Source: Enterobacteria phage Kha5h
Length of the DNA: 64,000 nt
Sequence record: NC_054905.1
Strand: one strand, 5' to 3'
Shown: in pieces, positions 1,814-64,000 of the stretch
Layout of the letters: every line of letters starts with the position of its first letter
How positions within the stretch are numbered: position 1 is the first letter of the stretch
Position numbers and translations under genes: made by a program
The notes under the pieces: model-generated
Told to the model about the DNA's origin: nothing
Database searches by the model: none
What the model saw: the letters and a program-made list of their open reading frames with translations, nothing else

Positions 1814-2284
1814 TTAATCATGTGTCCACACCCCATCGGTATTTGACCAAAGTCGCTGATTATCTGATCCTCGCCACAGCTTTTTGGTCGGAAGATTTTT
1901 CTCATACTTCCCATCAATAATAACATCAACATATTTAAGCATTTCTAGTTGTTTAATATCTTCAAATTTATATCCTGTCCACAACCAAATGCTTTTATTG
2001 GGATAAAGATTTTTTACTGTTTGAACAATGCAATGAATAACATCTCGGTTATCAGGATAGAGAGGGTCACCTCCAGTTATAGTCAATCCTTCTATATAAT
2101 CATTATTCAAACATTCAATTAATTGCTCTAGTGTTTCACCAGTGAATGGAATACCATTTCTAGCATTCCATGTTGATTTATTATAACACCCTTCACATTT
2201 ATGCAAACAACCTGTAACGAAAAGAACGACTCTGCAACCAGGGCCATTCACAAAATCGCAAGGATAAAATCTATCATAATTCAT
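1814..2284 (-). CDS. nrdG: anaerobic ribonucleotide reductase activating protein (radical SAM)
   Basis: CxxxCxxC cluster (CLHKCEGC); 156 aa; overlaps nrdD stop. Confidence 0.9.
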   Translation of the reverse strand: MNYDRFYPCDFVNGPGCRVVLFVTGCLHKCEGCYNKSTWNARNGIPFTGETLEQLIECLNNDYIEGLTITGGDPLYPDNRDVIHCIVQTVKNLYPNKSIWLWTGYKFEDIKQLEMLKYVDVIIDGKYEKNLPTKKLWRGSDNQRLWSNTDGVWTHD

Positions 2285-4098
2285 TGGTGTTTAACCCTAT
2301 GCATGATTTCTTTATTTTTACCGAGATTAAATCCGCGTTCGTTCGGATTTCCCAAATAACCACATGTTCTTCTTATGGTATTCATCTTTTTAGGATCAGT
2401 TTCTCCACAAACTGAACAAACAAATCCGTTTTCAGTAGGAGTCATTTCATGGGTACTTCCACATGTAAAACACTTATCTACTGGCATATTAACACCAAAA
2501 TAATCTAAATGCTGCGCAGCATAATCCCATACAGCCTCAAGTCCTTTTAGGTTGTTTTTCATATCTGGAAGTTCAACATAAGAAATGTGACCACCCGTCG
2601 CAATGAAATGATACGGTGCTTCACGAGAAATCTTTTCAAACGGAGTGATATTTTCTTCTACTGAAACGTGGAAACTATTAGTGTACCAGCCTTTATCGGT
2701 AACATCTTTTACGCTTCCATATTTTTCTGTGTCGAGTTTACAGAAACGATAACACAAGTTTTCAGCAGGAGTAGAATATAAACTAAAAGCAAATCCAGTT
2801 CTTTCGGACCACTGTTTAAGATGAGCATTCATTTTAGTTAAAATTTCTTGTCCAATATCACGACCAACAAGAATATTCAATTCATGAATACCGATGTATC
2901 CTAAAGACACTGAACTTCTGCCGTTTTTAAATAACTCAATTATATCGTCATCAGGTTTAAGACGAACCCCGAATGCACCTTCTTGGTATAGAATAGGAGC
3001 AACAGTCGCTTTAACTCCTTTTAAGGAACTAATTCTACACATCAAAGCTTCAAAACACAAATCCATTCGTTCATTGAACAATTCGATAAATTTCTGTTCA
3101 TTGAACTGCGTTCCAATATAAGAATCTAATGCGATGCGAGGAAGATTCAATGTTACAACACCAAGATTATTACGTCCATCAAGAATTTCATTACCAGTCG
3201 AATCTTTCCATACGCTCAAGAAACTACGGCATCCCATCGGAGAAACAGGAATAGATGAACCAGTGATAGCTTTATTATTCTTAGCTGAAATAATATCAGG
3301 ATACATCCTTTTGCTTGCGCACTCTAGAGCAAGTTGCTTAATGTCGTAATTCGGATCGTCTTTATAAAGATTAACGCCTTCTTCAACGAACATAACAAGC
3401 TTAGGGAAAATAGGAGTTATCCCATCACGACCGAGACCTTTAATACGATTTTTCAGAATTGCTTTCTGAATCATTCGTTCAGTCCAGTCAGTTCCTGTAC
3501 CAAATGTAATTGTTACAAAAGGTGTTTGTCCGTTTGAACTAAAGAGAGTATTTACTTCATATTCATAAGCTTGGAATGCATCGTATACATCTTTTTCTGT
3601 TTTAGACTGGGCATAATTCAACGCATCAGCGATTTGCCATTTTTCTGCATCCTCAATATGTTTTGCATAGGTGCGTTTAACATAAGGAGAAAGTACTTTA
3701 TCTACATTAGCAAAAGTCGTTCCGCCATATTGGTGAGAAGCAACCTGTGCAGTAATTTGTGCCATAATTGCAGTAGCAACGCCAATTGATTTAGGAGTTT
3801 CAATCTGCGCATTACCTAGCTTAAATCCATTTTCAAGCATTCCTTTTAAATCTACTAAACAACAATTAGTAAATGGAAGAGCAGGGGAATAATCAATATC
3901 GTGGAAATGAATAATTCCGCTTTCATGCGCTTTCATAATAAAAGACGGGACCATATTTTTGGCAATGTGTTTAGACACAATACCAGCCATAAGGTCCCGT
4001 TGAGTTGGAAAAACACGAGAATCTTTATTAGCATTCTCGTTTAAAAGGTCTTTATTAGTTTTATGAATCAATCCTTCAATTTCTTTTTCAATTGTCAT
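2281..4098 (-). CDS. nrdD: anaerobic ribonucleoside-triphosphate reductase, uninterrupted
   Basis: 605 aa; C-terminal glycyl-radical motif RTCGYLG and Cys-rich Zn ribbon; single continuous frame with no intron. Confidence 0.95.
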   Translation of the reverse strand: MTIEKEIEGLIHKTNKDLLNENANKDSRVFPTQRDLMAGIVSKHIAKNMVPSFIMKAHESGIIHFHDIDYSPALPFTNCCLVDLKGMLENGFKLGNAQIETPKSIGVATAIMAQITAQVASHQYGGTTFANVDKVLSPYVKRTYAKHIEDAEKWQIADALNYAQSKTEKDVYDAFQAYEYEVNTLFSSNGQTPFVTITFGTGTDWTERMIQKAILKNRIKGLGRDGITPIFPKLVMFVEEGVNLYKDDPNYDIKQLALECASKRMYPDIISAKNNKAITGSSIPVSPMGCRSFLSVWKDSTGNEILDGRNNLGVVTLNLPRIALDSYIGTQFNEQKFIELFNERMDLCFEALMCRISSLKGVKATVAPILYQEGAFGVRLKPDDDIIELFKNGRSSVSLGYIGIHELNILVGRDIGQEILTKMNAHLKQWSERTGFAFSLYSTPAENLCYRFCKLDTEKYGSVKDVTDKGWYTNSFHVSVEENITPFEKISREAPYHFIATGGHISYVELPDMKNNLKGLEAVWDYAAQHLDYFGVNMPVDKCFTCGSTHEMTPTENGFVCSVCGETDPKKMNTIRRTCGYLGNPNERGFNLGKNKEIMHRVKHQ

Positions 4099-21741: not shown

Positions 21742-21955
21742 ATTTGACTTCCTCACCAGTACATAAATCATATTCAACTAAACGAATAGGTTCATGAATG
21801 CCATATCCTTGAACAGAAATTTCTGTCGTAGGATAAATTCCATCAATATCACCCATATTCCATGCTTCATTAAATTGTTGTTCGCCTGAATTACTAAACC
21901 ATTCGGCGAAAGCATTTAGCACATCTTTAGAACCTTCAATAATTATCTTTGCCAT
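21734..21955 (-). CDS. hypothetical protein (73 aa)
   Basis: ORF track. Confidence 0.45.
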   Translation of the reverse strand: MAKIIIEGSKDVLNAFAEWFSNSGEQQFNEAWNMGDIDGIYPTTEISVQGYGIHEPIRLVEYDLCTGEEVKYD

Positions 21956-22317
21956 TACAAACTCTCAGTAAAGGTACGAGCGATAACGTCGCGCTGCTGT
22001 TCCGGAGTCAGAGAGTTAAAGCGAACTGCATAACCGGATACACGGATGGTCAGCTGCGGATATTTTTCCGGATGCTTAACTGCATCTTCCAGAGTTTCGC
22101 GACGCAGAACGTTAACGTTCAGGTGTTGACCACCTTCAATTTTAACTGTAGGCTGTGGTTCAATTTCAATTTCACGGGCATGCAAACCGTAGAAAATTTC
22201 TGGGTCTACAAAAGAGTCCTCTTTAAAGGTTTTAGAGACAATAATTCGTGCTTGAATACCATCTTCAAAATAAATAGTACCTTTATGTGTGCCTTCAAGA
22301 ATTTGATATGCTTTCAT
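21955..22317 (-). CDS. autonomous glycyl-radical cofactor (GrcA/YfiD-like)
   Basis: C-terminal [59 protein letters not shown] carries the RVSGY glycyl-radical motif and matches E. coli GrcA as recalled. Confidence 0.85.
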
Positions 22318-22323
22318 ATAACC

Positions 22324-22653
22324 TCAATTAGAAAATAAATTTATCCAAGATTGTTCTTTAATTAAAAATGGCTCAGAATCATATGCCATTAAACTTTGGG
22401 TAATTAGTCCTTTAAAAGGCCCATCAATAAATTCCATGGTAAAATATGGAATTTTATTCATTAATCTTGCATTAGGAGCAGTACACAAAACTCTGCATCC
22501 TTTGAATACGCCTTTTTGTAATTTGTATTGCTTAGGATAAAATTCGCTCAAGACGTTGTTATTTGCCAAAATTTCAAAATGATTCACCAATTTATTTTTA
22601 ATAGTTTTTGGCGAAAAATAAAGATATTCGAAAAGTTGCGTGTCTGTCATCAT
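22324..22653 (-). CDS. hypothetical protein (109 aa)
   Basis: start moved to ATG 22651-22653, ATGA overlap with upstream stop. Confidence 0.45.
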   Translation of the reverse strand: MMTDTQLFEYLYFSPKTIKNKLVNHFEILANNNVLSEFYPKQYKLQKGVFKGCRVLCTAPNARLMNKIPYFTMEFIDGPFKGLITQSLMAYDSEPFLIKEQSWINLFSN

Positions 22654-23342: not shown

Positions 23343-23816
23343 TTATTTGAATGATTTGACGTACTGAATAGAACCTTTACTATTCACGAAAGCGATTTTA
23401 CCATTTTTATTATACATGGTAGCAGTACGCTGATAGCCATAAGTTTGTTTACCAGATTGATAACCAACTAATGCGAAATTATCTTCACCCATTTTATTCT
23501 GTTTAGCGCGAATACGTTCATGACCGTGTGCCATAAGAACCTTAGCATCACCAGTTGAAATTGATCTACGAGTTTTTTCATCTTCAACTGTATTAACAAA
23601 GTCGTCAAATGAATCAAATTTAGCATGGGATTTATTATACAGTTTTCCATCTACTGCATAATTATATCCCTGTACATCCATCTCAACTTCTGTACCATCA
23701 TCCAATACAGCAGTGATTTTTTGACCTTTTTTAAATTTCAAAAGATCAGTAAAAGATTCAGCAATAATTTGAGAATTAATAGCTGCTTCAGTGATAAATT
23801 CTTGATATGTTTTCAT
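23343..23816 (-). CDS. candidate packaged internal protein with capsid-targeting-like N-terminus
   Basis: N-terminus MKTYQEFITE-AAINSQIIAE matches the T4 internal-protein CTS (MKTYQEF, L/I-x-x-E protease sites). Confidence 0.6.
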   Translation of the reverse strand: MKTYQEFITEAAINSQIIAESFTDLLKFKKGQKITAVLDDGTEVEMDVQGYNYAVDGKLYNKSHAKFDSFDDFVNTVEDEKTRRSISTGDAKVLMAHGHERIRAKQNKMGEDNFALVGYQSGKQTYGYQRTATMYNKNGKIAFVNSKGSIQYVKSFK

Positions 23817-24300: not shown

Positions 24301-25541
<1,241 letters not shown>

Positions 25542-29252: not shown

Positions 29253-29298
29253 CTTATTTCCTGTTTTAATTCGTGGTTTTAATATACTTATTTATACT

Positions 29299-29326
29299 AA
29301 AAAGCCCCAACCTTTCGGTCGGGGCT
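29299..29326 (-). terminator. intrinsic terminator closing the tRNA / small-RNA transcription unit
   Basis: hairpin AGCCCCGACCGAAAGGTTGGGGCT followed by TTTTT. Confidence 0.65.
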
Positions 29327-29329
29327 AAG

Positions 29330-29637
29330 CCTTGCGGCAACCTTGTCGGGGTTCCACCTGCTAAGGCAAGTGTTTGTACGAAACGCCGGGATTCGAACCC
29401 GGTTATTAAGCAGTTGACGCTACTCAATATTTTTAAAAGGCCATATCTCGACCATATCCGAACGTTCCGTCAAAAACGCTACTCGGCTTACGGCAAAGAT
29501 ATTTCCTCGAATCGATAATTCGGTGCGCCGTTTTTGCTGTGATATAAGGGGGCATTAACAAAACATAAAGATTTGTTAATGCCAGTCCTTAAACAGGGAA
29601 CATCAGTCCGACGACTTACCGGTAGCGACCCGGTTTC
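29330..29637 (-). ncRNA. candidate small stable RNA locus (tRNA-like element plus long hairpin)
   Basis: non-coding; contains T-arm-like CCGGGTTCGAATCCCGG with a pairing acceptor-like stem, and a perfect 12-bp hairpin GGCATTAACAAA/TTTGTTAATGCC; ends at a terminator. Confidence 0.3.
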
Positions 29638-30006: not shown

Positions 30007-30083
<77 letters not shown>

Positions 30084-30087
30084 TATT

Positions 30088-30162
30088 TGGCGGACATGCA
30101 TGGATTCGAACCATGGACCAATTGATTAACAGTCAACTGCTCTACCACTGAGCTACACATCC
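30088..30162 (-). tRNA. tRNA-Asn (anticodon GUU)
   Basis: hand-folded: D-arm GCTC-AGTGGTA-GAGC, anticodon loop CTGTTAA, T-loop TTCGAAT, encoded CCA. Confidence 0.75.
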
Positions 30163-30166
30163 AAAT

Positions 30167-30253
30167 TGGTGGGGAGTGATGGAGTCGAACCACCCGAGTC
30201 GCAATGACAATGGATTTACAGTCCACACCGCTACCTCTACGGGATAACTCCCC
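30167..30253 (-). tRNA. tRNA-Tyr (anticodon GUA), type II
   Basis: hand-folded: perfect acceptor GGGGAGT/ACTCCCC, anticodon loop CTGTAAA, long variable arm, encoded CCA. Confidence 0.8.
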
Positions 30254-30265
30254 TAATTCATAATT

Positions 30266-30340
30266 TGGTGGCCCTGGGTGGAATTGAACCACCATCTGGC
30301 GATTATGAGTCGCTTGCTTGAACCTTCCAGCTACAGGGCC
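30266..30340 (-). tRNA. tRNA-Ile (anticodon CAU, presumably lysidine-modified) or tRNA-Met
   Basis: hand-folded: anticodon stem-loop GCGA-CTCATAA-TCGC as in Ile2-type tRNAs; acceptor GGCCCTG/CAGGGCC. Confidence 0.75.
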
Positions 30341-30341
30341 T

Positions 30342-30417
30342 TGGTGCTGATTGACGGAATCGAACCGCCGACCTTCTCATTACAAGTGAGTTGCTCTACC
30401 TACTGAGCTAAATCAGC
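30342..30417 (-). tRNA. tRNA-Thr (anticodon UGU)
   Basis: hand-folded: anticodon loop CTTGTAA, T-loop TTCGATT, encoded CCA. Confidence 0.8.
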
Positions 30418-30422
30418 AAAAC

Positions 30423-30512
30423 TGGCGGAGGCGATAGGATTTGAACCTATGAGTCGCCGGAGCGACTGCCGGTTTTCAAGACCGGTGCATTAAACCACTC
30501 TGCCACGCCTCC
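30423..30512 (-). tRNA. tRNA-Ser (anticodon UGA), type II
   Basis: hand-folded: anticodon loop CTTGAAA, long variable arm, T-loop TTCAAAT, encoded CCA. Confidence 0.8.
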
Positions 30513-30514
30513 AG

Positions 30515-30588
30515 TCTCCATACAAGGATTTGAACCTTGGACCTCCTGATCCCAAATCAGGCGCTCTACCAAACTGAGCTACACGGAG
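30515..30588 (-). tRNA. tRNA-Pro (anticodon UGG)
   Basis: hand-folded: anticodon loop TTTGGGA, T-loop TTCAAAT; CCA not encoded. Confidence 0.75.
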
Positions 30589-30597
30589 TAATTAAAT

Positions 30598-30671
<74 letters not shown>

Positions 30672-30676
30672 AAATT

Positions 30677-30763
30677 TGGTGCGAGAAGTGGGACTCGAAC
30701 CCACAAGGAAATCATTCCGCAGCATTTTAAGTGCTGTGCCTTTACCAATTTGACCATTCTCGC
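30677..30763 (-). tRNA. tRNA-Leu (anticodon UAA), type II
   Basis: hand-folded: anticodon loop CTTAAAA, long variable arm, T-loop TTCGAGT, encoded CCA. Confidence 0.8.
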
Positions 30764-30764
30764 G

Positions 30765-30837
30765 CTGGGAATAAAGGACTCGAACCTTTGCATCTAGCAG
30801 TCAAAGTGCTATGCCTTACCAACTTGGCTAATTCCCA
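30765..30837 (-). tRNA. tRNA-Gln (anticodon UUG)
   Basis: hand-folded: acceptor TGGGAAT/ATTCCCA, anticodon loop CTTTGAC, T-loop TTCGAGT; CCA not fully encoded. Confidence 0.75.
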
Positions 30838-63172: not shown

Positions 63173-64000
63173 ATGACTATCAAAACTAAAGCTGAACTTT
63201 TGAACAAATGGAAACCATTACTGGAAGGTGAAGGTTTACCGGAAATTGCTAATAGCAAACAAGCGATTATCGCTAAAATCTTTGAAAACCAGGAAAAAGA
63301 TTTCCAGACAGCTCCGGAATATAAAGACGAAAAAATTGCTCAGGCATTCGGTTCTTTCTTAACAGAAGCTGAAATCGGTGGTGACCACGGTTACAATGCT
63401 ACCAACATCGCTGCAGGTCAGACTTCTGGCGCAGTAACTCAGATTGGCCCGGCTGTTATGGGTATGGTACGTCGTGCTATTCCTAACCTGATTGCTTTCG
63501 ATATTTGCGGTGTTCAACCGATGAGCAGCCCAACCGGTCAGGTATTCGCACTCCGCGCGGTATATGGTAAAGATCCGATCGCTGCCGGTGCTAAAGAAGC
63601 ATTCCACCCAATGTATGGTCCAGATGCAATGTTCTCTGGTCAGGGTGCTGCTAAGAAATTCCCAGCTCTGGCTGCTAGCACAGAAACTGTTGTAGGTGAC
63701 ATCTATACTCACTTCTTCCAGGAAACTGGTACTGTGTATCTGCAAGCTTCCGCTGTAGTAACAATCGATGCTAGTGCTAACGATGCAACTAAACTGGATG
63801 CTGAAATTAAGAAACAAATGGAAGCTGGTGTACTGGTAGAAATCGCTGAAGGTATGGCTACTTCTATCGCTGAACTCCAGGAAGGTTTCAATGGTTCTAC
63901 CGATAACCCGTGGAATGAAATGGGCTTCCGTATCGATAAACAAGTTATCGAAGCTAAATCTCGTCAGCTGAAAGCTGCTTACTCTATCGAATTAGCACAA
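63173..64000 (+). CDS. 23: major capsid protein gp23, 5' part (continues past the right edge)
   Basis: ATG 63173; MTIKTKAELLNKWKPLLEGEG... matches T4 gp23 N-terminus; the ORF track lists only antisense ORFs here. Confidence 0.9.
   Translation, partial: MTIKTKAELLNKWKPLLEGEGLPEIANSKQAIIAKIFENQEKDFQTAPEYKDEKIAQAFGSFLTEAEIGGDHGYNATNIAAGQTSGAVTQIGPAVMGMVRRAIPNLIAFDICGVQPMSSPTGQVFALRAVYGKDPIAAGAKEAFHPMYGPDAMFSGQGAAKKFPALAASTETVVGDIYTHFFQETGTVYLQASAVVTIDASANDATKLDAEIKKQMEAGVLVEIAEGMATSIAELQEGFNGSTDNPWNEMGFRIDKQVIEAKSRQLKAAYSIELAQ

Follow-up and report, generated by a model that had tools for sequence, protein, structure and literature searches.

Spare-part glycyl-radical cofactors have been validated biochemically in only two cases, E. 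coli YfiD and T4 Y06I, according to a passage of PMC8683613 that refers to Wagner et al. 2001. The same passage reports that the activating enzyme of pyruvate formate-lyase (PFL) installs the radical on T4 Y06I, and that PFL cleaved by O2 at Gly734 regains activity. Y06I is the product of vs.6, and vs.6 orthologues with a Gly_radical match occur in all six of the six T4-like genomes compared by Nolan et al. 2006 (PMC1524935). The gene and its biochemical role are already known, and no new kind of system is described here. What is added is a sharp intragenic patch of host sequence, together with a hint that the patch is kept up by recombination with the host gene. We found no earlier description of the nucleotide-level mosaic in the literature searched, a scope outside which lie key reviews of T4, Miller et al. 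2003 among them.

The window is the whole 64,000-nt stretch of Enterobacteria phage Kha5h (NC_054905.1) that was analysed. Very probably, the gene considered here is vs.6, encodes a cofactor of the GrcA/YfiD kind, and had its 3′ half patched by E. coli grcA; later refreshment of the patch is a less certain proposal. Its features, in window positions, are:

21955 to 22317, minus strand: coding sequence of vs.6 (Y06I, phage grcA), 363 nt with an ATG start and a TAA stop, encoding 120 aa
22140 to 22317, minus strand: 5′ half (gene nt 1-178, residues 1-59), AT-rich and phage-type, a diverged GrcA N-terminal region
21965 to 22139, minus strand: tract attributed to the host (gene nt 179-353, roughly residues 60-118), encoding the glycyl-radical domain
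22033 to 22035, minus strand: codon of Gly95 (RVSG95Y), the predicted radical-bearing glycine, placed by translation and alignment and equivalent to GrcA Gly102 and PflB Gly734
21955 to 21964, minus strand: last 10 nt, adjoining 21965 beyond the 3′ junction, phage-type, in the gene end GAG AGT TTG TAA
22322 to 22325, minus strand: GAGG, a Shine-Dalgarno-like motif 4 nt upstream of the vs.6 ATG, read from the sequence and presumed to function as such

The 120-aa product is identical to T4 Vs.6/Y06I (dN = 0 against T4T), and the T4T gene shares 98.6% of its nucleotides with the window ORF, with five synonymous differences. The ORF of phage vB_Eco_NR1 is 100% identical to the window vs.6 at the nucleotide level, and 22 kb of the window are 95-98% identical to several Tequatrovirus isolates. 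The orthologous group of T4 vs.6, phrog_1209, matches the full length of the protein (residues 1-120, E 1.2e-62). The gene order vs.8-vs.7-vs.6-vs.5-vs.4-vs.3-regB is that of T4, and the position of vs.6 between vs.7 and vs.5 in the regB-denV region is conserved. An earlier sequence-only reading of this DNA had placed the ORF and the RVSGY motif (residues 92-96) exactly, but it did not recognize the gene as that of the characterised T4 protein Y06I, which the protein identity makes plain.

The GAGG motif overlaps the stop codon of vs.7, so the array around vs.6 is tightly packed and probably co-transcribed; at the other end of the gene, the TAA of vs.6 overlaps the ATG of vs.5 (TAATG). A promoter/terminator scan gave 14 promoter-like sites around vs.6 against 13.1 expected. 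A 129-aa ORF on the plus strand (21949-22338) was taken as a shadow of vs.6 and set aside.

Pfam Gly_radical (PF01228) matches the vs.6 product with an E-value of 2.8e-18, and residues 61-120 are identical to residues 68-127 of E. coli GrcA at all 60 positions. Among solved structures, E. coli GrcA/YfiD (6OWR) matches best, with an E-value of 8.6e-42, and the C-terminal part of pyruvate formate-lyase comes next; 6OWR covers the domain that is identical to that of Vs.6. The equivalence of Gly95 to PflB Gly734 is established knowledge, as given in part of PMC8683613. The gene had been called GrcA-like from its sequence, and the RVSGY motif, the PF01228 match, the identity of the C-terminal 60 residues and the match to 6OWR bear this out.

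Homology to GrcA extends beyond the radical domain. Aligned on their own in hhalign, the N-terminal halves of Vs.6 and bacterial GrcA give a probability of 92.4% (E 5.1e-7, 32% identity, 47 columns), and phmmer aligns Vs.6 residues 22-120 to GrcA 28-127. Vs.6 is a small stand-alone protein of about 14 kDa, bounded by vs.7 and vs.5 and devoid of the catalytic barrel of PFL. The top NCBIfam model is TIGR04365 (spare_glycyl), whose 153.3 bits stay below the curated equivalog cut-off of 170 because the N-terminus of Vs.6 has diverged. NCBIfam ranks 1-4 are all GrcA and PFL models, and no NrdD model is among the NCBIfam matches. A full pyruvate formate-lyase or 2-ketobutyrate formate-lyase, catalytic and about 760 aa long, was rejected: TIGR01255 (pyruvate formate-lyase) reaches 88.9 bits against a cut-off of 994.2 and aligns at profile positions 680-744 only. 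The radical domain, the small size and the full-length homology together identify Vs.6, as judged from its sequence, as a GrcA-type cofactor in the structural sense. Many GenBank phage records label vs.6 as 'pyruvate formate-lyase', 'acetyltransferase' or 'hypothetical'. The 'pyruvate formate-lyase' labels are misnomers, and GrcA-type spare part is the fitting annotation.

The window also encodes an anaerobic ribonucleotide reductase and its activase:

2281 to 4098, minus strand: nrdD, anaerobic ribonucleotide reductase, 605 aa (Pfam NRDD 7e-172, Gly_radical 1.5e-25)
1814 to 2284, minus strand: nrdG, radical-SAM activase of NrdD (Pfam Fer4_12 2.3e-48, Radical_SAM 2.2e-7)

NrdG is the sole radical-SAM activase identified in the window among the ORFs examined. 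Vs.6 is a spare radical domain; with no PFL encoded by the phage and no other activase identified, it needs PflB and PflA of the host, as it did in the T4 experiments. The suggestion that the phage carries two glycyl-radical systems is right for nrdD/nrdG, which Pfam identifies, and goes too far for Vs.6, which is no system of its own. The nrdD gene is uninterrupted here, whereas T4T nrdD is annotated as two joined pieces with an I-TevII homing-endonuclease intron; the window phage appears to lack this T4 intron.

Other parts of the window differ from T4 in gene content. Ten tRNA genes lie on the minus strand at 30007-30837 (Arg, Asn, Tyr, Met-anticodon CAT, Thr, Ser, Pro, Gly, Leu and Gln), compared with eight in the T4T annotation; Asn and Tyr are the extra ones. 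A 155-nt segment in the Asn/Tyr region (about 30102-30256) is 80-95% identical to tRNA-Tyr/tRNA-Thr genes on ~110-kb plasmids in 255 E. coli genomes, and these plasmids may be phage-plasmids. Two ORFs on the minus strand (23343-23816 and 24301-24597) begin, one of them from an internal ATG, with an MKTYQEFITEA-like sequence that resembles the capsid-targeting sequence MKTYQEFIAEA of T4 IpII and IpIII. These two Ip-like ORFs flank denV, whereas T4 ipII and ipIII lie between denV and e. The internal-protein repertoire thus seems to differ from that of T4.

Within vs.6, the tract at 21965-22139 is identical to E. coli K-12 grcA at 175/175 nt. The blastn matches to E. coli grcA cover gene nt 179-363 only, and this 185-nt 3′ part finds grcA at 98.4% identity in each of the 5426 complete E. 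coli genomes; gene nt 1-178 have no blastn match to it. Nucleotide alignment to E. coli grcA had been proposed as a check, and it succeeds for nt 179-353 and fails for nt 1-178. An enterobacterial host origin is accordingly upheld for the 3′ 175 nt, with E. coli as the host, and not for the 5′ half, which has no nucleotide similarity to grcA. In a panel of 80 enterobacterial and Pasteurellaceae grcA genes, K. pneumoniae being left out, identity to the tract is 100% in E. coli, 98% in cryptic Escherichia, 91% in Citrobacter amalonaticus and 83% in Salmonella. The donor is evidently E. coli itself, because only there is the tract matched completely, against 91% in Citrobacter and 83% in Salmonella. 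A megablast search of the whole 64-kb window against E. coli genomes returned no chromosomal match besides the tract.

Both ends of the patch can be placed within the gene. The gene end GAG AGT TTG TAA has three synonymous differences from the E. coli GAA AGC CTG TAA. Phage-type synonymous codons occupy these last 10 nt in every T-even allele compared. Elsewhere the corresponding codons are GAG AGT CTA (Mosigvirus) and GAG GCA CTA (Jiaodavirus, the outgroup), so the bases of the final 10 nt look ancestral to the phage. Directly 5′ of the tract, a phage-type AAA ATT is present in all T-even alleles compared. As both junctions lie inside the coding region, they bear the signature of gene conversion between an ancestral vs.6 and host grcA and not of the pick-up of a gene end, and the 3′ half was overwritten by host grcA through recombination.

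The composition of the gene changes along with its apparent origin. GC content is 0.497 in the tract against a window mean of 0.358 (SD 0.045), which places the tract in the top 0.86% of windows of this length (z = 3.1). A 120-nt sliding profile reaches GC 0.48-0.51 only over the 3′ half and stays at 0.26-0.37 over the 5′ half and the neighbours. The 5′ half has a GC content of 0.343 and a GC3 of 0.20, as predicted by phage codon usage, and the neighbouring genes have GC contents of 0.29-0.38. Leucine is encoded by CTG at 5/6 positions in the tract and at 5/107 in the neighbouring genes, and proline by CCG at 3/3 and 8/51 positions, respectively. Recoded with the phage's own codon usage, the tract peptide would have an expected GC content of 0.401, so about one third of the GC excess comes from amino-acid composition and the remainder from codon choice. 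The host-like composition that had been ascribed to the gene as a whole is real, as the proposed windowed GC and codon-usage comparison confirms, and is confined to the 3′ half; the 5′ half does not share it. Orthologues that lack host-identical DNA are likewise GC-richer in their 3′ halves, and GC alone is therefore weak evidence. The only other regions of the window that reach the GC content of the tract are one with part of the tRNA cluster, 29295-29496 and 63338-63723; the latter two (GC >= 0.497 in 175-nt windows) have no E. coli DNA match.

Orthologues of vs.6 are present in T4-like, T5-like and jumbo phages. Those of Jiaodavirus, Slopekvirus, Pseudotevenvirus, Krischvirus, T5-like and jumbo phages have C-termini that are 77-100% identical in protein, while their 3′ halves share just 67-88% of nucleotides with E. 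coli grcA. Identity to the grcA tract is bimodal across 1506 phage records: 627 fall at 95-99%, just 18 at 90-95%, and all others do not exceed 90%. All high-identity alleles with checked taxonomy belong to Tequatrovirus or Mosigvirus, and the host-patch mosaic is seen in about 640 genomes of these two genera. In IMG/VR, six of the 80 loci returned are close T-even-type alleles. Because homology extends through the N-terminal half and orthologues at low nucleotide identity are widespread, the gene is not a recent whole-gene capture. Vs.6 is, by the sequence comparisons, an old full-length GrcA homologue of which only the 3′ half was recently replaced by host grcA.

The high-identity match to grcA in every complete E. 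coli genome, and the host-like GC and codons of the tract, could also be read as signs that a host grcA was captured recently in its entirety and still carries host composition. We consider this scarcely credible: the match ends at gene nt 179, the 5′ half has a phage-typical GC3 and is just 32% identical to GrcA at the protein level, and the 3′ junction is intragenic, with a phage-type end. Moreover, vs.6 and the same neighbours are conserved across T4-like genera, the gene also occurs in T5-like phages, and nucleotide similarity to the host gene over the whole coding sequence, as capture of a whole gene would require, is not found. The recent capture of the gene proposed by the sequence-only reading is disproved where the 5′ half is concerned; what took place was an intragenic replacement of the 3′ 175 nt. 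Contamination with host DNA or a chimeric assembly would likewise produce a host-identical tract, and the perfect 175-nt match is indeed to the usual propagation host. The chance of such an artefact is practically negligible, since the same in-frame mosaic with the same junctions recurs in the roughly 640 independently sequenced phage genomes, T4 and RB69 among them, and preserves a 120-aa ORF that overlaps the vs.5 start. A different function is also very unlikely, namely that the role of Vs.6 lies in nucleotide metabolism, where it might replace the radical domain of the phage NrdD, for instance, instead of that of host PFL. The presence of nrdD and nrdG in the same window fits this idea, and Nolan et al. 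2006 (PMC1524935) speculated on such a role from the shared Pfam domain. However, the radical domain is identical to that of GrcA, the four top NCBIfam models are of GrcA and PFL with NrdD absent, the NrdD motif here is RRTCGYLG and not RVSGYAV, and T4 Y06I is reported in a passage of PMC8683613 to work with PFL and PFL-AE. We conclude that vs.6 is an old phage gene of the GrcA type with a host-derived 3′ patch.

No near-identical host gene turned up in the grcA panel for the 3′ tracts of orthologues from Klebsiella and Citrobacter phages, Krischvirus and T5-like phages (best matches 74-91%). For the Klebsiella and Citrobacter phages the best sampled host match is 83-91%, in a panel without K. 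pneumoniae. The best host matches of these other-genus tracts fall within the range of host-to-host distances. Host tracking as a general rule across genera was rejected, as the tracts of other genera have no near-identical host grcA in that panel.

In Klebsiella Jiaodavirus vs.6 (L005, 601-963; L092, 623-985) the 3′ tract has a GC content of 0.55 between flanks of about 0.39, and it is 88-91% identical to several Enterobacteriaceae grcA genes, which is about the distance among those hosts. This tract could be an older patch or one from an unsampled host. On a 19 kb contig (L122, IMGVR_UViG_2706794630_000006), a GrcA-like gene matches Yersinia artesiana grcA at 91.4% over its 3′ 186 nt, closer to a host than any other locus except the T-even alleles of E. 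coli type. This gene may be a further copy of host origin; alternatively, the contig may bear a viral label but contain bacterial DNA. Several short viral-labelled IMG/VR contigs (L162-L172) hold full-length pflB/tdcE-like genes in place of small GrcA-like ones, with ORFs of up to 335 aa in the fetched stretch, and are probably bacterial or prophage-flank sequence.

A divergence test set the window (Tequatrovirus) against two Mosigvirus genomes, RB69 and PhAPEC2, and resolves three levels:

flanking genes vs.7, vs.5 and vs.4: dS 1.0 to >2 (saturated), dN 0.21-0.31
vs.6 5′ half: dS 0.36-0.40, dN 0.05
vs.6 host-type tract: dS 0-0.07, dN about 0

In synonymous differences, Fisher tests separate the 5′ half from the tract (p = 0.0002-0.016) and the flanks from the 5′ half (p about 1e-4). 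Protein-level selection does not explain the low dS of the tract, because other genera vary its synonymous sites freely. Two alleles can be told apart at Arg73. The window tract (CGC) is identical at 175/175 nt to the K-12-type E. coli allele, and the T4T tract (CGT) is identical at 175/175 nt to the IAI1/BL21-type allele. The variable base is C in the window and RB69 and T in T4 and PhAPEC2, so that both states occur in both genera, and both alleles are common in the present E. coli population. There are 16 perfect matches to the tract among phage records, whose host fields are vague on K-12 propagation.

These patterns suggest, without amounting to proof, that the tract has been repeatedly converted by host grcA, for which the chances appear roughly even; the homology to host grcA stops precisely where the tract does, which fits such copying. 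After the tract had come to match the host gene completely, it could be refreshed by more conversion from grcA or by phages exchanging it among themselves, which we propose with moderate confidence. Such refreshment would explain why the tract stays all but identical to the alleles now found in E. coli, even as the remainder of vs.6 and its flanks diverge. The stronger claim is that the radical-domain half evolves in concert with chromosomal grcA through ongoing conversion from host to lytic phage, and not through a one-off capture, with the perfect homology over 175 nt enabling T-even phages to take up the prevailing E. coli allele time and again during infection; we advance it tentatively, as slightly short of an even bet. 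A single chimera formed in the common ancestor of the T-even phages, with its tract kept by purifying selection and codon bias and no later exchange with the host, is rather unlikely by comparison. It accords with the same 5′ junction in all sampled T-even alleles and with C-terminal 60 residues that are near-invariant everywhere. It also accords with the shared-polymorphism test, in which 4 of the 6 sites that vary among 8 Escherichia alleles also vary, with the same base, among 12 phage alleles (hypergeometric p about 0.2), an overlap not above chance given that 25 of ~58 third-codon positions vary in phages. Against it, other genera encode the same peptide at 67-88% nucleotide identity to grcA, so that synonymous sites are not frozen. 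The near absence of synonymous change in the tract between Tequatrovirus and Mosigvirus, next to the values in the adjoining 5′ half and the flanks, and the two phage alleles that each match a different living E. coli allele completely and occur in both genera also weigh against a single event. Other points count against repeated conversion. The C/T difference at Arg73 could be a recurrent transition, and a small number of exchanges between phages could give the same three levels of divergence. The tract of Tequatrovirus Nami has 10 private changes and is not homogenised.

The window protein can be expected to rescue PFL, given its identity with T4 Y06I and the in-vitro work on the latter. Host activase PflA, with SAM, would place a radical on Gly95. 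The 14-kDa Vs.6 would then dock onto the host enzyme, pyruvate formate-lyase cut by oxygen at Gly734, and stand in for the lost radical domain, restoring the conversion of pyruvate to acetyl-CoA and formate. A T4-infected cell presumably makes no new host GrcA or PflB, which would be where the benefit lies. A spare part made by the phage could keep fermentative energy metabolism going when a gut host meets traces of oxygen. No vs.6 deletion phenotype was found in the literature.

If the radical-domain half does evolve in concert with grcA, the spare part encoded by the phage would at all times suit the PflB and PflA of whichever host population is being infected. Ongoing conversion would also mean that a phage gene can be matched to its host partner proteins by recombination, and not by selection alone. 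The sharp mosaic, in a strictly lytic phage whose 64 kb otherwise have no DNA in common with the E. coli chromosome, offers a clean natural marker with which to measure how T4-like phages recombine with host chromosomes. The locus further illustrates that a GC shift can flag an intragenic patch instead of a captured gene, and that part of such a shift can be mere amino-acid composition.

Among the known systems, T4 Vs.6 (UniProt 'Autonomous glycyl radical cofactor') is the same protein in the same neighbourhood (vs.8 to regB) with the same mosaic structure. The T4 gene differs at the Arg73 codon, which is CGT (IAI1/B-type allele) there and CGC (K-12-type allele) in the window. E. coli GrcA (YfiD, 6OWR) is homologous over its full length and identical to Vs.6 in the C-terminal 60 aa and in 175 nt of the gene, and the two presumably share a role as a PflA-activated spare radical domain for O2-cleaved PflB. 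Their N-terminal halves are ~32% identical, with that of Vs.6 shorter by 7 residues, and Vs.6 is expressed from a phage gene array, whereas E. coli GrcA is expressed from the host grcA promoter. The C-terminal glycyl-radical domain of PflB (PDB 1H16, 2PFL) aligns at residues 697-759 with Vs.6 58-120, radical glycine included. Vs.6 lacks the catalytic barrel and the Cys418/Cys419 pair of PflB, and the tract of vs.6 is about 80% identical to pflB at the nucleotide level, compared with 100% for grcA.

The vs.6 orthologues of other genera (T4-like, T5-like and jumbo phages) have the same architecture and near-invariant C-terminal domain as the window gene, and show what the gene is like when it has no recent patch from E. 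coli. A mosaic of a comparable kind is reportedly known from cyanophages, where Zeidner and colleagues in 2005 and Sullivan and colleagues in 2006 are said to have described intragenic host-phage recombination in psbA/psbD. There, too, a phage metabolic gene has mosaic segments exchanged with its host homologue. The cyanophage case involves another host, another gene and another phage clade, whereas vs.6 is set apart by sharp junctions and by a segment that equals present host alleles.
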